From assembly GCA_903949285.1 (NCBI GenBank), contig CAJAYT010000015.1:15843-79842 (forward strand): a stretch of DNA of 64,000 bases. Reading direction: 5' to 3'. Shown in pieces: positions 44,548 to 59,221 of the stretch. A program made the translations under genes and the position numbers. The notes beneath the pieces are model-generated. The model was not told the DNA's origin, did no database searches, and worked only from the letters and a program-made list of their open reading frames with translations. Within the stretch, counting starts at the first letter, position 1. Each line of letters begins with the position of its first letter. The stretch is from an uncultured Burkholderiales bacterium. Lineage in GTDB: Bacteria; Pseudomonadota; Gammaproteobacteria; Burkholderiales; Burkholderiaceae_C.

Positions 44548-45423
44548 ATGAGTGACTTCCTACAACTACTGATGAGTGGCCTAGCAACGGGGAGTATTTA
44601 CGCCCTCGCTGCTTTGGGTTTTACGCTCCTCTGGCAAGCCTCTGGAACCATCAATTTCGCTCAAGGCGAGTTTGTGATGTTGCCAGCTTTCATCATGATC
44701 GTCCTCATGCAGATGGATGTTTCTTTTGTCGCAAGCGTTGCACTCACCTGCGCTTTATCTGTTTTTCTTCTTGGATGGCTTTTTAAACGCGGCCTAGTAG
44801 ACCCTTTGTTTAAATACGGCATGATGCCAATTGTTGTTGCAACGATCGGTTTATCGATTGCAATGCGAAACGGGGTGCGTGCAGGTTACAGCGCGCAGCC
44901 GCTGAATTTTCCTTCTCTATTTCCTGAAAATTTATACCATATCGCAGGAGTCACGATCTCTAATTCGGATATTGGGACCTTTGTGATGGCACTTGTGCTG
45001 GTTCTGCTGACTCAGGGATTCATCACAAAAACAGTCACAGGTCGGGCCATGCAAGCTGTGGCCCAAAACACTGAGAGCGCTGCAGTGTTGGGAATCAATG
45101 TTCCGCGAATGATTTTCTATACCTTTGCAATCAATGCTCTATTGGCTGTTGCTGCTGCGCTCTTGATCACACCCACCTACCTTGCCAAGTTTGATATGGG
45201 GGAGTCATTGGGCAACAAAGCCTTTTTTGCTGCAATCATTGGTGGCTTTAACAACTCCAACGGCGCGCTCTTAGGAGGCCTCTTAGTAGGGGTATGCGAG
45301 AACTTGGCTGCCGCCTATATCTCCCCGGCTTATAAAGACGCTGTCGCACTGCTTATTTTTATGGTCGTTATTCTCTTTAAACCGCAAGGTCTTTTGGGCC
45401 GCAAAGAGGAGCGCAAGGTATGA
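44548..45423 (+). CDS. LivH-like ABC transporter permease
   Basis: GLATGSIYALAALG, INFAQGEF, GRAMQAVAQN and AAIIGG. Confidence 0.92.
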   Translation: MSDFLQLLMSGLATGSIYALAALGFTLLWQASGTINFAQGEFVMLPAFIMIVLMQMDVSFVASVALTCALSVFLLGWLFKRGLVDPLFKYGMMPIVVATIGLSIAMRNGVRAGYSAQPLNFPSLFPENLYHIAGVTISNSDIGTFVMALVLVLLTQGFITKTVTGRAMQAVAQNTESAAVLGINVPRMIFYTFAINALLAVAAALLITPTYLAKFDMGESLGNKAFFAAIIGGFNNSNGALLGGLLVGVCENLAAAYISPAYKDAVALLIFMVVILFKPQGLLGRKEERKV

Positions 45424-46430
45424 AGAAACTTACACTTTTATTTATTTCTGCATGTATTGTTGCCCTCTTGATAGTACCCTTCTTCCTTAAAACCTATGGT
45501 GTACATCTCTTAACAACGTGGCTCATCTTTATCATCGCCACGATGGGGTTGAATCTAACAACGGGCTACGCGGGTCAAAAATCCCTGGGACAGGCGGCGT
45601 TCTTTGGGATCGGTGCCTACACAGTTGCTATCTTCTTAAAGATGGGTATCAGCTTTTGGCTAGGCCTACCTGTTGGCGCTTTGATTTGCTTCCTTGTTGG
45701 AGTGCTCCTTGGATTTCCAGCACTGCGTGTACAGACCATTTATTTGGCCTTTGCCACCCTTGGCTTTAATACTGCCATTTGGCTTGTCATGCGCAACGAA
45801 GAGTGGTTGACAGGAGGAACGTTTGGGATGAACAACATCGCGAGACCATCACTCTTAGATTTCAACTTGGACAATAACCGCAATTTTTATTTCCTGGTAC
45901 TTTTCGTCACGCTTGTCATGGCACTCCTCCTTTGGAAACTGATAGAGTCTCCGTGGGGTAAATCCTTCACCGCGCTCAGGGACAATCCGATCCGAGCTGA
46001 GAGTCTGGGCATACATATTCGCAAGTACACCTTAATGAGTTTTGCGATTGGTGCGGCCTACGCGGGTGTCGCAGGTGGCCTGTACGCTTGTTTGGTTCAG
46101 TTCATTGACCCAGCCCTCTTCACGGTCGGTGCCTCCATCATGATGTACTTGATGGTAGTGGTGGGTGGACCTGGCTACTTCTTTGGCCCCGTGCTCGGAA
46201 GTGCAGTCGGTGTAGTACTCCCCGAATGGCTTCGGTTTGCACAGGCTTGGTACCTCTTCATCTTTGGCACCGCAGTTATTTTATTGATGATTTGGCTACC
46301 CGATGGTCTGCTCAGCATACCGGAGCGACTGCGCTCCAAAAAACTAGCCAAAGAAGCCTCAAACGCACGTTCCTTGAAAGCCATTCATGCGCAACAAAGT
46401 TCAAACCAAGAAGGCGGTGTATCCCTATGA
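45420..46430 (+). CDS. LivM-like ABC transporter permease
   Basis: GYAGQKSLGQAAFFGIGAY, YLAFATL and ALRDNPIRAESLG. Confidence 0.92.
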   Translation: MKKLTLLFISACIVALLIVPFFLKTYGVHLLTTWLIFIIATMGLNLTTGYAGQKSLGQAAFFGIGAYTVAIFLKMGISFWLGLPVGALICFLVGVLLGFPALRVQTIYLAFATLGFNTAIWLVMRNEEWLTGGTFGMNNIARPSLLDFNLDNNRNFYFLVLFVTLVMALLLWKLIESPWGKSFTALRDNPIRAESLGIHIRKYTLMSFAIGAAYAGVAGGLYACLVQFIDPALFTVGASIMMYLMVVVGGPGYFFGPVLGSAVGVVLPEWLRFAQAWYLFIFGTAVILLMIWLPDGLLSIPERLRSKKLAKEASNARSLKAIHAQQSSNQEGGVSL

Positions 46431-47191
46431 ACGCCTACGATAAAAAAATGCACCCACTCCTAAAGGTAACTGATTTACACAAATCCTACGGCGCTATTCA
46501 AGCCGTAGCAGGCGTTTCTTTTGAAGTCACAGCGGGCGAGATCTTTGGAGTGATAGGGCCCAACGGTTCTGGTAAGACCACGCTCTTTAACAGCATGCTT
46601 GGACAAATCACACCCAACTCTGGACGCATAGAGCTAAACGGAAAAGATGTCACGAGTCTTTCCCCTTTAGAGCTCAATCACTTGGGGGTTGGGCGCACCT
46701 TTCAAACTCTGCAAGTGTTTGGGAAGATGAGTGTCAAAGATAACCTAATAGTCGCAGCCCAAGAGCATAAAGGGAGCATGCTCAGCAGAATATTTGCCCC
46801 CTCAGACTCAGGACTAGGAGAGCGCGCAGATGAGCTGATCCAACTCTTTAATCTGGGGCATGTTGCGCACAAAAGAGCCGGCGAGCTATCGTATGGTCAA
46901 CAAAAGTTAGTAGATATCGCAATGGCTTTTATGAGCGAGCCTGAGCTGGTGTTACTGGATGAACCCTGCGCGGGGGTCAACCCCTCCCTTGTCGGTGGAA
47001 TCAGCAAACTCCTGAAAGAGCTCAACCAAAGGCAAGGAGGCAGTTTCGTAGTCATTGAGCACAACATGGACTTTGTGATGGATCTGTGTCACAAAGTAAT
47101 GGTGATGGTTGAGGGGCGTGTACTTGCCGTTGGTACTCCGAGTGAAATCAGAGCAAACAAGCAAGTCCTTGATGCTTACTTGGGAAATTGA
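46427..47191 (+). CDS. LivG-like ABC transporter ATP-binding protein
   Basis: Walker A GPNGSGKT, LSYGQQK, LLDEP and IEHNM. Start moved to the ATGA overlap at 46427. Confidence 0.93.
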   Translation: MNAYDKKMHPLLKVTDLHKSYGAIQAVAGVSFEVTAGEIFGVIGPNGSGKTTLFNSMLGQITPNSGRIELNGKDVTSLSPLELNHLGVGRTFQTLQVFGKMSVKDNLIVAAQEHKGSMLSRIFAPSDSGLGERADELIQLFNLGHVAHKRAGELSYGQQKLVDIAMAFMSEPELVLLDEPCAGVNPSLVGGISKLLKELNQRQGGSFVVIEHNMDFVMDLCHKVMVMVEGRVLAVGTPSEIRANKQVLDAYLGN

Positions 47192-47194
47192 TCT

Positions 47195-47926
47195 ATGAAC
47201 AACAACTCTTGCATCGAATTCAATGATGTTTTGGCGGGCTACAAGGATTTCATGATCCTTAATAACCTGTCCTTTCAAGCCAAGCGAGGCTGCATTACTT
47301 TGCTGCTGGGTCCAAACGGAGCAGGCAAATCAACCGTACTGAAAACCCTTTTTGGATTGTTAAAACCCAGGACCGGACACATCTACTTGGACGGCGAAGA
47401 TATCACAGGCCTCAACCAAAAGGATCTGCTCGCCAAAGGGATTGCCTTTGTTCCACAGGGCAGAAACCTCTTTGGACAACTGAGTGTTTTTGAGAATTTA
47501 GAATTGGGCGGGATAACGCTTGGGATGAAGACCACCCATGAACGGATCCCTGAAGTGCTGGCGTTCTTTCCCCGTCTCAAAGAACGCCTGAACTCAATGG
47601 CAAGCTCTCTATCCGGAGGTGAGCAAAAGCAACTTGAGATTGGACGTGCACTACTTTTGCGCCCCAAAGTCATATTGATCGACGAGCCCTCCATTGGCCT
47701 GTCCCCGCTTGTGGTTCAAGATGTATTTAAACTCCTACGCCAACTCGCCGACCAAGGTACGACAGTTTTGATGGTTGAGCAAAATGTAAAAAGTGCGCTA
47801 AAGTACGCAGATGAAGCGATTGCCTTGGAATCAGGTCAAAAAGTGCTTCAAAAAGATGCCGCTGATTTACTCTCTGATCCCCACCTTGAGCGTCTATTCC
47901 TGGGCGCAGTGCAAGTCAACCCTTAA
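47195..47926 (+). CDS. LivF-like ABC transporter ATP-binding protein
   Basis: GPNGAGKS, LSGGEQKQLEIGRAL, IDEPSIGLSP and VEQN. Confidence 0.93.
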   Translation: MNNNSCIEFNDVLAGYKDFMILNNLSFQAKRGCITLLLGPNGAGKSTVLKTLFGLLKPRTGHIYLDGEDITGLNQKDLLAKGIAFVPQGRNLFGQLSVFENLELGGITLGMKTTHERIPEVLAFFPRLKERLNSMASSLSGGEQKQLEIGRALLLRPKVILIDEPSIGLSPLVVQDVFKLLRQLADQGTTVLMVEQNVKSALKYADEAIALESGQKVLQKDAADLLSDPHLERLFLGAVQVNP

Positions 47927-47985: not shown

Positions 47986-48864
47986 ATGTCAGACGCAGCA
48001 ACAAGTGCCCGCGAAGCGATTCCAGATAATTTAAATCCACTTGGAATGGAGGGCATTGAGTTCATCGAATACGCTACCTCCAAACCCCAAGCACTCGGAC
48101 AAGTGCTTGAGATGATGGGATTTAAACCCATCGCAAGACACCGCTCAAGGGAGGTAACGCTATACCGCCAAGGGGATATAAATATTATTATCAATGCGCA
48201 TGACGCAGGCCTCTCCCACCGCTCTAGCCCGACTGAGACGCCTGTTCTCGCAGCTATTGCACTGCGAGTTAGGGACGCCTCAACCGCTTACCAACGAGCC
48301 CTTGACTTAGGGGCTTGGGCTGTGCCTACGCAGGTCGAAGTCATGGAGCTGAACATACCCGCCGTTCACGGTGTTGGGTCTAGTCGCATTTATTTTGTGG
48401 ACCGCTACAAAGAGTTCTCGATCTACGATGTGGACTTCACCCCTATTCCCACTGTGGATCAACATCCCAGTGCGTTACACGATATCAAGCTCTTTGGAAT
48501 TGTTCAGTACATTGGTAACGACAGGGCTGAAGACTGGAGCGAGTTTTACTGCTCGCTCTTTGGCTTTGAAGTCCTCCCCGCTCAGACAAAGTTTGGCATC
48601 TTGCCCAAAGGCACTATCCTTCGCAGTCCCTGCCACCAATTCTTCTTGCAACTCATTGAGCCCGAGGCTGGGCTGCTAAGCGTGGATGAGGATGAGCGTT
48701 TTCAGCGTGTTGCCTTTAGCACGCCTAGCGTTTTCGAAGCAGTCAAAGACCTCAGAACCAAGGGGGTTGAATTCATTGAGTCTCCCACCGTTCACACAGA
48801 GGACAAAGGTGCACTGACGCGAACCTGGCTGGGTGCCATTAGCTTTGAGCTCGTTAAGCGTTAA
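47986..48864 (+). CDS. HPPD-like VOC-fold protein lacking the iron-binding histidines (QuiC1 C-terminal-domain-like)
   Basis: NPLGMEGIEFIEYA and RHRSREVTLYRQGDINIIINA are HPPD N-domain motifs. The expected IDH and QH ligand sites read LFG and QRV. Confidence 0.8.
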   Translation: MSDAATSAREAIPDNLNPLGMEGIEFIEYATSKPQALGQVLEMMGFKPIARHRSREVTLYRQGDINIIINAHDAGLSHRSSPTETPVLAAIALRVRDASTAYQRALDLGAWAVPTQVEVMELNIPAVHGVGSSRIYFVDRYKEFSIYDVDFTPIPTVDQHPSALHDIKLFGIVQYIGNDRAEDWSEFYCSLFGFEVLPAQTKFGILPKGTILRSPCHQFFLQLIEPEAGLLSVDEDERFQRVAFSTPSVFEAVKDLRTKGVEFIESPTVHTEDKGALTRTWLGAISFELVKR

Positions 48865-49811
48865 TGAAGGAATTATTTATGAACCCGATTATCGGAAACC
48901 TGTCAGACTTTGGGATGGATACCATCTCACTGGCAGGCACCCTAGAGTCAAAATTAAAAGCGATCAAGCAAGCTGGATTTAACCAGGTCATGCTGAACGC
49001 AAAAGACGTTGTGGGTCATGCACAAGGTTTAGATGCCGCCATTGAGGCCGTACAAAGCAGTGGCCTTCGTGTCACAGGCTTTCAGGTTTTAAGAGACTTT
49101 GAGGGTCTCAGTGGACACTTGCACGACTACAAGATCGATATAGCCAAGTCAATGCTGGAGATGTGTTCAGCACTCAACTCTAAAGTCTTACTGGTCTGCT
49201 CGTCAACCTCTACCCACGCAGCGCAGGACATCGATAGCTTGGCCAAGGACTTGAGGAAGCTTGCCATGCTAGCCGTCCCCAAAGGTATTAAAGTAGCCTA
49301 CGAGGGTCTCTCGTGGGGCAGAACGATCAATGAGTTTGCACAGGCCTGGGACGTAATTGAGAGAGCCGATATGCCAAACCTAGGCATTGGCATTGACTCC
49401 TTTCATATCCTAGCGACCAAGTCCTCCTTAGACGACCTGGAGATCATTGATCCAGAGAAAATTTTCTTAGTCCAACTCGCTGACTTTATGTGGCAAGAGA
49501 TACGCTCCGTAGAGGAGCGCATCACCACTGCCAGGCACTTTCGAGTATTTCCGGGAGAGGGCGTACACAGTGAATTTTTAGCCGACTTGGTGACCCGTTT
49601 GTACAAATTAGGGTACAGAGGGGACTATAGTTTTGAGGTCTTCAACGATGACTATCAACAGCTACCCCTCAACACCGTTGCTGCTCGAGCAATGCGGTGT
49701 GCACAGTGGCTGGGAGAGGACGTGCTCAAGCGCTCTGTTCCGCTTCCCAATAAAATCAGGTTGCACCCGAGCCAACGAATCCTAGCAAAACAAGGCGTTG
49801 CGCCTTCCTAA
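48864..49811 (+). CDS. Sugar-phosphate isomerase/epimerase-type TIM barrel, 3-dehydroshikimate dehydratase-like (QuiC1 N-terminal-domain-like)
   Basis: FQVLRDFEG, YEGLSWG, DSFH, FLVQLAD, RHFRVFPGEG and SFEVFND; TAATG overlap with the upstream gene. Confidence 0.8.
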   Translation: MKELFMNPIIGNLSDFGMDTISLAGTLESKLKAIKQAGFNQVMLNAKDVVGHAQGLDAAIEAVQSSGLRVTGFQVLRDFEGLSGHLHDYKIDIAKSMLEMCSALNSKVLLVCSSTSTHAAQDIDSLAKDLRKLAMLAVPKGIKVAYEGLSWGRTINEFAQAWDVIERADMPNLGIGIDSFHILATKSSLDDLEIIDPEKIFLVQLADFMWQEIRSVEERITTARHFRVFPGEGVHSEFLADLVTRLYKLGYRGDYSFEVFNDDYQQLPLNTVAARAMRCAQWLGEDVLKRSVPLPNKIRLHPSQRILAKQGVAPS

Positions 49812-50242
49812 CTTTTCTCAATAAACCCGTCCAATCTCTGAGGGTTCTCGCGTGTTTATATTCACATCCTCTTGATGGATCAAAGCATCTGCGCTTTTTT
49901 AGTTGGTTATCACGGTATTTAGACCCAGACCTACTGCGGGGGCTACAGCTCCTGGAAGGAATCTGTATTTTTGTGAAGAGCAAGCATAAAAGAGGAGCAG
50001 ACGCACAAAAATTACTGCTTAACTTTAAGGTGAATACTTAAGAATCCAGTCAATTTTTACGAACTCGCCAGTCCTAAAAACATACATTCTTTGGGTCAAA
50101 TTTCGGTAGATTCCCTCACCAGAAGATACACTTGAGGTCCATGTCTCCCAGAGTAGGATTTCAAGAAGGCTTAGGTAAAACGTACATTAAGTCTTTATTC
50201 AACATATACCTCCTCGGTCAAGCTCAAGGACACTGTTTAATT

Positions 50243-51505
50243 ATGACAACACCCTATTTCCAATTCGTTAAATCATTAACTCAGCGTATTTCTGTACTTT
50301 TGAGTTTTGCAGTGATCGGAGCCATTTCACTGGTAGCCTGGGGGGATGCGTTGGCGCAGTCACCCCAGAGCGCCCAACCCACCATCAAAATTGGAGAAAT
50401 CAACAGCTATAAAGCGCAACCTGCGTTTTTAACGCCTTACAAAAAGGGAATGGAGTTGGCAGTTGAAGAAATTAACGCTGCGGGGGGTATAAACGCAAGG
50501 AAATTAGAGCTATTCACGCGCGACGACAACGCCAATCCGGGGGACGCTGTGCGTGCTGCGCAGGAGCTCCTCGCGCACGAGCACGTTGACTTGATTGCAG
50601 GCGCTTACCTCTCCAATATTGGATTGGCTCTCGCAGATTTTGCGAAACAAAATAAAGTCTTCTATTTAGCTGGCGAGCCGTTGACAGACAAAATAGTTTG
50701 GGAAAACGGTAATCACTTCACCTTTCGCCTTCGTGCAAGCACGTACATGCAAGCTTCAATGCTTGTACCTGAGGCTGCTAAATTGAACAAAAAACGGTGG
50801 GCTATTGTTTATCCAAATTATGAATATGGACAATCAGCGGCTGCGACCTTTAAAGAGTTACTCAAGGCCGTACAACCTGGCGTAGAGTTCGTCACCGAAC
50901 AGGCTCCACCCCTTGGAAAGATAGATGCAGGCGCGGTGACGCAGGCTTTGGCAGATGCAAAACCCGACGCTATTTTTAACGTTCTCTTTGGTACCGATTT
51001 AACAAAGTTTGTCCGTGAAGGCAATACACGAAAGCTCTTCGAAGGCAAAGGTGTGGTGAGCCTGTTGACTGGTGAGCCCGAGTATTTGGACGCGCTGAAA
51101 GAGGAGACCCCAAACGGCTGGATAGTAACTGGTTATCCCTGGAGTGCGATCACAACGCCCGAGCATAAAGCGTTCCTCAAACTTTATAAAGACAAATACA
51201 ACGAATCTCCCCGCCTAGGATCAGTGGTTGGCTACACCTTGATTAAATCAATTGCAGAAGGGGCCAAAATTGCAGGGGGTGCTGATACCGAAAAACTCAT
51301 CACCGCTTTCTCAGGCATGAATGTGAGTACTCCGTTTGGGAAAATACTTTTTAGATCTGAAGACCATCAATCGACCATGGGAGCGTATGTCGGTCGACTG
51401 AGAAACGATAATGGACAAGGAATCATGGTGGACGCCAAGTACATGGATGGCGTAAATTTCTTGCCAACACCCTTTGAAGCTAAAAAACTAAGGCCCCAGA
51501 ACTAA
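50243..51505 (+). CDS. LivJ-type periplasmic substrate-binding protein
   Basis: N-terminal hydrophobic signal ending ALA, GMELAVEEINAAGG, RDDNANP and YPNYEYGQS. Start moved to ATG 50243. Confidence 0.9.
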   Translation: MTTPYFQFVKSLTQRISVLLSFAVIGAISLVAWGDALAQSPQSAQPTIKIGEINSYKAQPAFLTPYKKGMELAVEEINAAGGINARKLELFTRDDNANPGDAVRAAQELLAHEHVDLIAGAYLSNIGLALADFAKQNKVFYLAGEPLTDKIVWENGNHFTFRLRASTYMQASMLVPEAAKLNKKRWAIVYPNYEYGQSAAATFKELLKAVQPGVEFVTEQAPPLGKIDAGAVTQALADAKPDAIFNVLFGTDLTKFVREGNTRKLFEGKGVVSLLTGEPEYLDALKEETPNGWIVTGYPWSAITTPEHKAFLKLYKDKYNESPRLGSVVGYTLIKSIAEGAKIAGGADTEKLITAFSGMNVSTPFGKILFRSEDHQSTMGAYVGRLRNDNGQGIMVDAKYMDGVNFLPTPFEAKKLRPQN

Positions 51506-51627
51506 AACCGATGAGAGACGTTGGTGCTAAGCGCGCAATCTAAGGGGCGAGTAAGTGTGAACGTTGATCAGATCATTCACCTGCGTGACCTATGCTGCAC
51601 TCCAGTGACGTCTGACTCCTACACCCT

Positions 51628-53601
51628 ATGAATCTGTCCGCACTTCTCGTTCAACTGATCAATGGGTGGGCGAGTGCCTCTAGTCTTTTCTTAAGCGCTG
51701 CTGGGTTGACCCTTATCTTTGGGGTCACGCGCATCATTAACTTTGCACACGGCTCCTTCTTTATGTTGGGGATGTATATTGCCTACACGCTCATCCATGC
51801 TTTAGGCCCCTACCTACTCCTGACACTGGGTCTCCCCCTTGGTGTGGGGTACTGGGTTGCGGTGTTGGCAAGCGGCCCCTTGGTCGGATTGATCGGACTT
51901 ACTACGGAGCTCCTCATACTTAGGCGCATCTACAAAGCACCTGAGTTAGTTCAACTGTTGGCTACGTTTGCAGTCTTGCTCATCATCAACGATACCGCAC
52001 TCTACGCCTTTGGTCCAGAGGATTTACTGGGGCCTAGAGCAGCCGGTCTTGGCGGGTCCTTAGATCTTCTTGGTAGGTCAGTTCCCAGTTATGACCTATT
52101 CCTAATTGCACTTGGTCCCTTAGTGCTTGCAGGCATTTGGTGGACTTTAAAGCGCACTCGTATTGGGCTGTACATCCGCGCAGCCAGCACTGACAAAGAG
52201 ACCCTGCAGGCGCTGGGCGTGAACTCAAGCAGCCTCTTTACTTTTGTATTCACCTTTGGATGTGCTCTAGCGGGATGGGCTGGTGCGTTAGAGCTTGTAA
52301 GAACACCAGCTAATCTGGGGGCAGATTTATCCGTTGTGACAGATTGTTTTGTGGTGGTGGTCATCGCAGGCATGGGCTCTATCACCGGAGCATACGTCTG
52401 CGCATTACTACTAGGGGTAATAAAGGCGGTATGTATCACCCTAGGATCTCAAACGCTACTAGGGTTCACCATTGAGTTCTCCAAACTCACCCTCATTTCA
52501 GAATTTGTTTTGATGGCAGTCATACTCATTTTTCGCCCTACTGGACTCTTTAACGCAGGCAACAGCGACTCGGATACGAGCACCAATAAATCAGCATACG
52601 CACCGCCCTCATATGTGAGAGCTGATTCAGGTGGATTCTCCCTCACGCAAAAGCTCAGGCAAAACTACAACGCCAAAGTCCTAGGCTTTTTGGTTTTTAC
52701 GGCTCTATGCACTTTACCAGCCCTGGTGCAGGACAACAGTTACTTGCTGGTACTTGCAATAGATATTTTGATTGCAGCATTGTTTGCAGCCAGTCTCCAT
52801 TTTCTGATCAGTTGCGGGGGCTTGATCTCATTTGGTCATGCAGCCTATTTTGGTATTGGAGCCTATGCAAGTGCACTTTTGGTTAAAACCGCGCACCTGA
52901 GCATGGAGGAGTGCCTCCTACTGAGCCCCCTTATTTGCATGGTGTTTGGATCATTGCTAGGTTGGCTTTGCACACGGTTGTCGGGTATTTACCTGGGGAT
53001 GTTGACTCTTGCCTTGGCGCAACTTTTATGGGCCATTTGCTTTCAGTGGGACGGACTCACGGGAGGCTCTAACGGGATCACGGGGATATGGCCTAGCGAC
53101 ATGTGGAGTGCACATGCCAATTTTTATACACTCACTCTCGCGCTTGTGACGCTGTCGCTTTTGTTACTTCAACGGATCATTCAATCTCCCTACGGGTTGA
53201 CACTAAAAGCGTCTAGGGATAGCGCGAGAAGAGCACTCTCACTGGGTGTTAATGTAAAACGTGTTCAACACATCGCCTTCATCATCAGCTCCGCCTTTGC
53301 TGGGCTAGCTGGCGCTCTCTTTGCCTTCTCTAAGGGAAATATCTCACCCGATGTTTTAGGACTCTCACGTTCGGTAGACGCCCTTGTAATGGTGCTCCTG
53401 GGAGGGATCAACTCAAGTCTTGGCCCCTTGCTCGGAGCGCTAGCCTACACCTCCCTACAAGACCTGGTGGCCCGCGATACGCAGTACTGGAGGGCGTGTC
53501 TAGGTGCGCTGATTTTGGTGTTACTTTTTGTGTTGCCAAGTGGCTTGGCGAGTCTGATGTACCCCCTTCGCAGAACTGTAAGAACGCAGGCCCAACGCTA
53601 A
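51628..53601 (+). CDS. Fused LivH-LivM ABC transporter permease
   Basis: 657 aa: LivH half (INFAHGSF, GLYIRAAS), polar linker, LivM half (ISFGHAAYFGIGAY, GIYLGMLTLA). Confidence 0.9.
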   Translation: MNLSALLVQLINGWASASSLFLSAAGLTLIFGVTRIINFAHGSFFMLGMYIAYTLIHALGPYLLLTLGLPLGVGYWVAVLASGPLVGLIGLTTELLILRRIYKAPELVQLLATFAVLLIINDTALYAFGPEDLLGPRAAGLGGSLDLLGRSVPSYDLFLIALGPLVLAGIWWTLKRTRIGLYIRAASTDKETLQALGVNSSSLFTFVFTFGCALAGWAGALELVRTPANLGADLSVVTDCFVVVVIAGMGSITGAYVCALLLGVIKAVCITLGSQTLLGFTIEFSKLTLISEFVLMAVILIFRPTGLFNAGNSDSDTSTNKSAYAPPSYVRADSGGFSLTQKLRQNYNAKVLGFLVFTALCTLPALVQDNSYLLVLAIDILIAALFAASLHFLISCGGLISFGHAAYFGIGAYASALLVKTAHLSMEECLLLSPLICMVFGSLLGWLCTRLSGIYLGMLTLALAQLLWAICFQWDGLTGGSNGITGIWPSDMWSAHANFYTLTLALVTLSLLLLQRIIQSPYGLTLKASRDSARRALSLGVNVKRVQHIAFIISSAFAGLAGALFAFSKGNISPDVLGLSRSVDALVMVLLGGINSSLGPLLGALAYTSLQDLVARDTQYWRACLGALILVLLFVLPSGLASLMYPLRRTVRTQAQR

Positions 53602-58369: not shown

Positions 58370-59221
58370 TTATTCCAGAACCAAATCTAGTTTGACTTCC
58401 AAAAGATGGTCATGATCCTTGTACCTTTTCAAAAGCTCTGGATCAACGACTGGCTTGTACTGTGCAACCAAAACCTCACGCACACCAAATACTGCGTCTG
58501 TATCCAAGTAGGGATCTTCTTCATCAAATATCTCTGTGACAAGCGTTCTGTGTCCAGGGGCCTCAACGATCAAGTGCAAATGCGCAGGCCGCCAAGGCGA
58601 GCGCTTGGACTGAACAAACATGGCACCTACTGGGCCATCCATGGGTATGGTGTAGGGCTTGGGTCGAATGGTTGCAATCTCAAAGGATCCGTCTTCTTGT
58701 GCATGTAGCATGCAGCGAAGATTATCCTGAGGCTGCTCGGGATCTTGTTGCCAGTAGAGGCCGTTGTCAGCATTTTGCCAAAAATCCACTGTCGCACCTG
58801 CAATGGGCTTACCCTTGAGATCCAGTACTTTACCCCTAAAAATGGCTGCTTGACCCGGATTATTTCTGAGCAAATTGGCTGGGCTTTGCATGACCGGTGA
58901 GCCGCGCGAGTGAAAGGGCCCCAGGTTACTCCCCGGTGTTGCTTTCTCAGATCCCATCGCAAGTAAATCGATCAAAGATGAGAGGCCAAATACATCGGAC
59001 ATTAAGGAGAATTCACTCCTTGACTCATCTGTAATGGCAGCAGCTTGATGCAAAAAATGCAGCCCTGCTCTCCACTCCTCGTGCGTTAATTTGGTGTCTC
59101 TAGCAAAGTCGTGAAGGTGGGCGACAAAAGTTTTTAAAATAAACTGAAGCCGTTGGTCAGGCAATTGATCAAAACTGCTCTGAGTGAGTGCCGTGAGGTT
59201 GTCGGATGATGTGTTGCGCAT
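58370..59221 (-). CDS. Intradiol ring-cleavage dioxygenase, hydroxyquinol/catechol 1,2-dioxygenase type
   Basis: N-terminal helical dimerisation region (LHDFAR..LTHEEW), LGPF, two Tyr (GLYWQQ, PKPY) and RPAHLH iron ligands, DAVFGV. Confidence 0.88.
   Translation of the reverse strand: MRNTSSDNLTALTQSSFDQLPDQRLQFILKTFVAHLHDFARDTKLTHEEWRAGLHFLHQAAAITDESRSEFSLMSDVFGLSSLIDLLAMGSEKATPGSNLGPFHSRGSPVMQSPANLLRNNPGQAAIFRGKVLDLKGKPIAGATVDFWQNADNGLYWQQDPEQPQDNLRCMLHAQEDGSFEIATIRPKPYTIPMDGPVGAMFVQSKRSPWRPAHLHLIVEAPGHRTLVTEIFDEEDPYLDTDAVFGVREVLVAQYKPVVDPELLKRYKDHDHLLEVKLDLVLE

Follow-up and report, generated by a model that had tools for sequence, protein, structure and literature searches.

Two adjacent genes in an uncultured Burkholderiales bacterium (GCA_903949285.1, contig CAJAYT010000015.1) probably encode a two-component 3-dehydroshikimate dehydratase (EC 4.2.1.118), the two parts of which reside in a single chain in enzymes such as QuiC1. 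We analyzed a 64,000-nt stretch of this contig (the window; all positions are given in its numbering) and place the probability of this reading at about 0.7. The upstream gene, open reading frame (ORF) A, encodes a VOC-fold protein that resembles 4-hydroxyphenylpyruvate dioxygenase (HPPD) and is referred to here as the partner, or HPPDL. The downstream gene, ORF B, encodes a QuiC1-type, xylose-isomerase-like TIM barrel. An initial annotation, made from the DNA sequence, had proposed that the pair is a QuiC1-type enzyme split in two and reversed in order. Judged by homology, residue conservation, phylogeny, linkage and genomic context, that functional interpretation is well supported.

The barrel and its active site

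Among proteins of known structure, the closest relative of the barrel is the N-terminal domain of Pseudomonas putida QuiC1 (PDB 5HMQ, E 6.5e-45). IolI is next (E 5e-15), and AsbF (3DX5) gave no sequence match at E 0.01. The barrel scores 94.6 bits against the Pfam xylose-isomerase-like TIM barrel family (PF01261, gathering threshold 31.1) and aligns with positions 5-268 of the NCBIfam QuiC model (NF042435) at 178 bits; the next family, IolO, reaches 30 bits. The AlphaFold2 (AF2) model is a TIM barrel (pLDDT 77.5), and in Foldseek searches 5HMQ is again the closest structure (E 7e-21, TM 0.79, rmsd 2.6 Å), followed by IolI (2e-15), with AsbF at rank 29 and 14% identity.

Ten active-site residues are described for QuiC1 and QsuB: R64, L97, E134, L136, D165, H168, Q191, S206, R210 and E239 (PMC7442255). 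Their equivalents in the barrel, by alignment with 5HMQ, are R77, L110, E147, L149, D178, H181, Q204, A223, R227 and E258 (residue numbers refer to a 315-aa version of ORF B), and nine of the ten are kept. None of the nine varies among the 81 barrels of the window's clade. The E/D/Q/E metal-ligand positions are retained, as the initial annotation anticipated, and so are the Arg and His residues. Every motif listed in that annotation is found in the barrel: RDFEG (77-81), YEGLSWG (146-152), DSFH (178-181), VQLAD (203-207), RHFRVFPGEG (224-233) and EVFND (258-262). Also as anticipated, databases call the protein a ‘sugar phosphate isomerase/epimerase’. The window's genome holds no other QuiC-like gene.

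The HPPD-like partner

Two modules make up the partner, one assigned to the Pfam HPPD N-terminal domain (PF14696, E 4e-49) and the other of the Glyoxalase/VOC type; its match to the QuiC model covers positions 293-557 and scores 108 bits. Residues 17-197 align with Pseudomonas HPPD in the PDB (E 8.5e-39), and the whole protein aligns with the C-terminal domain of 5HMQ (E 3.9e-23). Its AF2 model (pLDDT 73) has the two-module HPPD fold, and Foldseek retrieves both Pseudomonas HPPD (E 1.5e-22) and 5HMQ (1.5e-18). Against the HPPD family itself (TIGR01263), the partner scores 103 bits, below the cut-off of 277.

The metal site is where the partner departs from these relatives. The His/His/Glu iron triad of HPPD corresponds to Gly171, Arg241 and Glu288, so two of the three ligands are gone. 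The same Gly/Arg/Glu combination occurs in all 11 partners that were checked, within the motifs FG.VQY, QR.G. and FEL or FEI, whereas the ligands of true HPPDs sit in IDH..., GIQH... and FFEF... motifs. QuiC1 (5HMQ) and nearly all of the fused C-terminal domains examined retain the full triad. Two stretches of HPPD are also missing from the partner, an internal one after the second ligand position and the C-terminal tail. The partner terminates right after its FELV motif and is ~65 residues shorter than Pseudomonas HPPD. With only one of the three iron ligands left, the partner is most likely a conserved, non-catalytic pseudo-dioxygenase, and the fixation of Gly and Arg in 11 of 11 cases speaks for purifying selection on a role that does not involve a metal. 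No true HPPD was detected in the window's genome (no match to TIGR01263 at 1e-40), where the partner is the sole homologue.

Gene order, junction and distribution

Both open reading frames are present on the same strand, in different frames and in the order originally described, with the HPPD-like gene ahead of the barrel gene, the reverse of the QuiC1 domain order. The proposed manner of their coupling needs revision. It had been read as a TAATG overlap, and the stop (TAA, 48862-48864) and an ATG (48864-48866) do overlap; starting there, ORF B would span 48864..49811 (+) and encode 315 aa. Translation probably does not begin at this ATG. A database protein identical to ORF B is 310 aa long, which puts its start at the conserved ATG at 48879. 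Among the closest relatives, two (L004 and L006) offer only an ATG at +14/+15, two others (L003 and L005) additionally offer only a TTG at -4, and none of the four has a TAATG start. Given the length of the database protein, the placement of a GAAGGA motif and the starts available in relatives, the partner stop and barrel start are probably separated by a 14-nt spacer, tightly packed without overlap. In nearly all of the 71 relatives' loci with this gene order, the barrel starts ~-4 to +25 nt from the partner stop. Tight packing is kept across these 71 pairs and the exact junction varies.

Scanning a single genome for each GTDB species recovered barrel relatives in at least 576 species. The best 80 of these are almost all Burkholderiales (Limnohabitans, Polaromonas, Hydrogenophaga, Variovorax, Rhodoferax, Sphaerotilus and Methylibium), and the partner precedes the barrel in 71 of their 81 loci; the remaining loci include antisense mis-picks by the ORF chooser. 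Cultured strains that carry the pair include Polaromonas jejuensis NBRC 106434, Limnohabitans sp. JirII-31 and Sphaerotilus mobilis DSM 10617. In an evenly sampled set of 301 Burkholderiales genomes, with the barrel called at ≥55% identity and the partner at ≥51%, the same 15 genomes carry both genes (15/15 versus 0/286; nominal Fisher p 1e-25, uncorrected for shared ancestry). The carriers span at least six GTDB families, and the pairing is far beyond chance. The partner lies 5' of the barrel on the same strand in all 15 and is directly adjacent to it in 14; in genome G253, a shikimate dehydrogenase gene sits between the two. A fused QuiC homologue is absent from 14 of these 15 genomes. In a wider sample of 401 genomes from across the phylum, ~50 have fused-length homologues at 31-38% identity, and the pair was seen only in the order to which the window belongs.

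Two metagenome-assembled genomes labelled Acidobacteriota/Blastocatellia (L066 and L071) also contain a Burkholderiales-type pair, with barrels 71-73% identical to that of the window, which points to either horizontal transfer or a binning error.

The DNA of the window is present in many pond and lake metagenomes. Lake metatranscriptome contigs match it with zero mismatches at two places in the partner gene (48050-48200 and 48269-48419) and across the junction (48862-49012). Both genes thus appear to be transcribed in lakes, on the thin support of a few 151-nt contigs that may include DNA carry-over.

Phylogenetic placement

In the barrel tree, for which IolI serves as outgroup, the fused enzymes, including QuiC1, form one clade (31 rows, SH-aLRT 94) and the standalone barrels another (44 rows, SH-aLRT 90). 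These two clades and a single stray standalone row join at an open trifurcation. The window's barrel clade is nested within the standalone clade and lies outside the fused one. Tree placement was one of the tests by which the initial annotation could have been refuted, and the barrel goes with the sister clade of the fused QuiC1/QsuB-type enzymes, away from IolI, IolE and the epimerases. The description of the pair as a split QuiC1 is correct in that there are two genes in reversed order. It is not correct if taken to mean a recent break of a quiC1 gene, since the standalone barrels group together as a sister clade of the fused enzymes. The barrel and the partner each represent a deep lineage separate from the fused enzyme, and the partner no longer has the metal site that is retained in the fused domain.

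By residue content, the standalone barrel clade is functionally mixed. Catalytic residues have been lost from many of the standalone homologues at 33-50% identity (P0129, P0144, P0148, P0172, P0177, P0181, P0186 and others), often through replacement of the metal ligand Glu147 by Lys or Arg, of His181 by Asp or Gln, or of Glu258 by Asp, Ala or Leu. Such proteins may be pseudo-enzymes, or variants that do not depend on a metal. One degenerate barrel (L102:3183-3986, on G488:C8), with Glu to Gly and Asp to Asn replacements, is encoded beside an IclR regulator, a shikimate dehydrogenase, a Liv transporter and a fused QuiC.

In the tree of HPPD-like modules, the partner clade, the fused C-terminal domains and the true HPPDs are three well-supported groups. 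We considered and dropped the idea that the partner was recruited from HPPD independently. In an initial tree it had grouped with Burkholderiales HPPDs, apart from the fused C-terminal domains; once 37 HPPDs sampled across the phylum were included, the three groups split three ways without a root, the two long branches meet, and one origin and two origins are indistinguishable.

Genomic context

The loci of the 80 species most often have the gene order PcaR/PcaU-type IclR regulator, shikimate-dehydrogenase-like gene, substrate-binding protein, livHMGF, HPPDL, TIM barrel, pcaB, pcaC, pcaD, Gfo/Idh/MocA oxidoreductase and aroQ. Family assignments within this cluster include the regulator (TIGR02431, 267 bits) and pcaB (TIGR02426, 376 bits, cut-off 356), and aroQ encodes a type II dehydroquinase. 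By this gene content, the pair fills the slot that a dehydroshikimate dehydratase would take in the quinate/shikimate-to-protocatechuate clusters of relatives.

In the window, livHMGF lies directly 5' of the pair (Table 1). The earlier placement of the genes behind an importer is borne out, both here and by the Liv-type importer that accompanies the pair in the quinate/shikimate-protocatechuate clusters of relatives. From this context, the importer would carry a quinate- or shikimate-type substrate. The first Liv set (44548-47926) comprises permeases and ATPases and has no binding protein; the second (50132-53601) has no ATPases. The second set apparently occurs only in the closest relatives (as two genes 3' of the pair in L004 and L005) and is absent in L006 and at most loci.

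Table 1. The gene pair and neighboring features of the window
Feature	Position	Strand	Remarks
LivH-type ABC permease	44548..45423	+	First gene of the run; NCBIfam LivH/UrtB matches below cut-off; syntenic with the pair in relatives
LivM-type ABC permease	45420..46430	+	NCBIfam; synteny in relatives
LivG-type ABC ATPase	46427..47191	+	Start overlaps the livM stop (ATGA)
LivF-type ABC ATPase	47195..47926	+	Ends 59 nt 5' of the HPPD-like gene
HPPD-like VOC-fold partner gene (HPPDL, ORF A)	47986..48864	+	292 aa; two VOC modules
GAAGGA Shine-Dalgarno-like site	48866..48871	+	Read from the sequence; 7 nt 5' of ATG 48879
QuiC1-type xylose-isomerase-like TIM-barrel gene (ORF B)	48879..49811	+	310 aa from the conserved start
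Second, incomplete Liv-type set	50132..53601	+	Membership in the system uncertain
Substrate-binding protein of the second Liv-type set	50132-51505	+	PDB 3I45, E 5e-136
Fused LivH-LivM permease of the second Liv-type set	51628-53601	+	NCBIfam

The window's genome (3.17 Mb in 164 contigs, 47% GC) holds further parts of the pathway. On contig C77, a second shikimate-dehydrogenase-like gene is divergent from a PcaR-like regulator. Genes for pcaB, pcaC and pcaD were not found in the genome by tblastn at 1e-8, and a candidate ‘pcaGH’ cluster (c15) was rejected because its genes encode peptidyl-prolyl isomerases. Contig C110 encodes LigB (581 bits), LigA (TIGR02792, 228 bits), LigK (TIGR02798, 407 bits) and 4-oxalomesaconate tautomerase (499 bits), along with a LigI-like hydrolase and a LigJ-like protein. 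As judged from these matches, the C110 genes together constitute the protocatechuate 4,5-cleavage route.

The window also encodes an intradiol dioxygenase (58370-59221, - strand), in a genome without pcaB, pcaC and pcaD. It scores 158 bits against a catechol 1,2-dioxygenase cut-off of 404, and a hydroxyquinol-type substrate is possible.

Discussion

How might two chains do the work of one? We infer that the barrel and the partner form a two-subunit complex. The barrel would bind a divalent metal via E147, D178, Q204 and E258, and would dehydrate and aromatize 3-dehydroshikimate to protocatechuate in the manner of the N-terminal domain of QuiC1 and QsuB. The N-terminal domain of QsuB, expressed alone, is active and monomeric and gives one third of the product in vivo; dioxygenase activity was not detected for the C-terminal domain; and in a QsuB dimer modelled on QuiC1, the N-terminal domain of one chain contacts the C-terminal domain of the other (PMC7442255). 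As these contacts run between subunits, separate chains could build the same assembly, whatever the order of their genes. A separate, metal-free HPPD-like chain could then make the same inter-subunit contacts as the fused C-terminal domain, which would explain why the partner is so strictly retained. Most likely, its role would be the one proposed for the fused domain: to hold the barrel in a stable oligomer and to modulate product inhibition.

The 14-nt gap and the barrel gene's own ribosome-binding site would favor synthesis of both proteins from a single transcript. The Liv/HAAT-type ABC importer, along with shikimate/quinate dehydrogenase and AroQ, would provide the substrate. Protocatechuate would be passed to LigAB 4,5-cleavage in the window's genome and to PcaB, PcaC and PcaD in many relatives.

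Several findings weigh against a two-component dehydratase, or at least complicate it. The matches of the barrel and the partner to the QuiC model (178 and 108 bits) are both far under its equivalog cut-off of 1200 bits. The position of QuiC1 Ser206, which is always Ser in fused-length enzymes, is occupied by Ala throughout the 81 members of the window's clade and is preceded by a 4-residue insertion, and because of these clade-wide changes the substrate contacts, or specificity, may be altered. The pathway genes are scattered in the window's genome, with livHMGF alone beside the pair and no regulator, dehydrogenase or aroQ there. The operon-type binding protein (65% identical to that of relatives) is on another contig, the 7.5-kb C23 (C23:3792-4931), where aroE (349 bits) and a gene for an amidohydrolase with weak similarity to 4-sulfomuconolactone hydrolase come after it (C23:3792-6657).

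Other points against this reading come from individual genomes. G304 encodes a solo barrel with an intact site and no HPPD-like partner, in a cluster of IclR regulator, shikimate dehydrogenase, barrel, MFS transporter, shikimate dehydrogenase and aroQ; the partner is therefore not universally needed. G488 contains a pair of the window's type, a fused QuiC elsewhere in the genome and a degenerate barrel. In G604 (L100, G604:C163:1-4991), a fused QuiC1-type gene is divergent from a distant HPPD-like plus barrel pair, whose barrel (43% identity) has an intact site and Ser before the RH motif. The presence of both forms in one genome hints that their functions need not be identical.

Could the barrel, then, be a self-sufficient dehydroshikimate dehydratase, with the HPPD-like protein not bound to it and doing a job of its own in the pathway? 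The partner might act as a buffer or chaperone for protocatechuate or dehydroshikimate, using its remodelled pocket with Arg in place of His, or might catalyze a metal-independent, VOC-type isomerization. The activity of the isolated QsuB N-terminal domain (PMC7442255) is in keeping with this, as are solo barrels of the G304 type, which have intact sites in qui clusters without a partner, and the gene that parts the two in G253. Conservation of the partner's replacement residues, which indicates a pocket under selection, fits as well. However, barrel and partner co-occur strictly (15/15), in fixed order and at a spacing typical of translational coupling. Quinate catabolism is not known to involve a VOC enzyme of such a kind. 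The fused relatives, moreover, join the same two modules in one chain, with the domains touching across the dimer (PMC7442255). We thus regard independent function of the two proteins as rather unlikely. It is more doubtful still that the pair is a specificity variant of the QuiC1 fold that acts on some other hydroaromatic or cyclitol substrate, or at some other step. The Ser206 to Ala change and the loop insertion fixed in the clade would suit such a variant, as would the Gfo/Idh/MocA (IolG-like) oxidoreductase often encoded nearby, the genomes in which fused QuiC and the pair coexist, and the functional heterogeneity of the standalone clade, many members of which have lost catalytic residues. 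Yet every other active-site position of QuiC1 is invariant, a fused QuiC homologue is missing from 14 of 15 carriers, and inositol-enzyme families score far lower on the barrel. The usual neighbors (shikimate dehydrogenase, aroQ, pcaBCD and PcaR) are exactly the quinate/shikimate-to-protocatechuate set. The HPPD fold of the partner and the lack of a true HPPD in the genome might also suggest that the partner is an active dioxygenase, for example on protocatechuate or 4-hydroxyphenylpyruvate. This we consider very improbable, given the substitution of two iron ligands (His to Gly and His to Arg) in every partner checked, the missing sequence after the second ligand position and at the C-terminus, and a score far from the HPPD cut-off (103 versus 277 bits).

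If the pair is a two-component dehydratase, the role of the partner might be defined further. We tentatively suggest that it is a dedicated pseudo-enzyme subunit, in which the former iron pocket, with its conserved Arg, binds protocatechuate or dehydroshikimate and tunes the barrel through product sensing or allostery. Were this so, the two-gene system would represent the fused enzymes dissected by nature, and would imply that the HPPD-like domain of QuiC1 and QsuB works without metal chemistry. The strict retention of a partner whose metal site is gone argues for a structural or regulatory role.

The best 80 barrel loci, mostly two-gene pairs, include those of abundant lake bacteria (Limnohabitans, Polaromonas and Rhodoferax). 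As the barrel is labelled a sugar phosphate isomerase/epimerase, genome-based estimates of quinate and shikimate use in freshwater would miss the enzyme. The two-gene form would also allow the barrel and the HPPD-like part to be expressed, mixed and titrated separately. Dehydroshikimate dehydratases serve in the production of protocatechuate and muconate, for which a diverse new clade could be helpful.

Comparison with known systems

Four classes of dehydroshikimate dehydratase have been named, and a two-gene form is not among them (PMC9324987, PMC7442255). No split form is described in the literature accessible to us, which does not include the primary QuiC1 paper.

The nearest parallels are QuiC1 of P. 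putida (5HMQ), QsuB of Corynebacterium glutamicum and AroZ of Klebsiella, which are built from the same modules, a TIM barrel and an HPPD-like VOC domain. The window's barrel is 35-38% identical to these enzymes and shares their association with quinate/shikimate and protocatechuate catabolism. In the fused enzymes, one chain carries the TIM barrel at the N-terminus and the HPPD-like domain at the C-terminus, whereas in the window two genes occur in the opposite order. The window's barrel belongs to a sister clade, with Ala for Ser206 and a 4-residue insertion. Its partner, unlike QuiC1 and most fused domains, in which His/His/Glu is kept, is without two iron ligands and the C-terminal tail. 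With Pseudomonas HPPD (PDB 1CJX, 9QMF), the partner shares the two-module VOC fold, and the N-terminal modules are strongly alike. It differs in its Gly/Arg/Glu site, its shorter length and its constant linkage to a barrel gene.

AsbF of Bacillus (3DX5), fungal Qa-4 and Listeria QuiC2 are stand-alone TIM barrels that convert dehydroshikimate to protocatechuate (PMC9324987; 10.1101/2025.04.08.647683). Like the window's barrel, each is a single-domain protein, but their sequences and folds are far less similar, and they have no HPPD-like companion. IolI, IolE and sugar epimerases of the PF01261 superfamily share the fold of the barrel and have a similar metal-ligand pattern. Here the similarity is far weaker, and the genomic context of the pair is not that of inositol or sugar catabolism.

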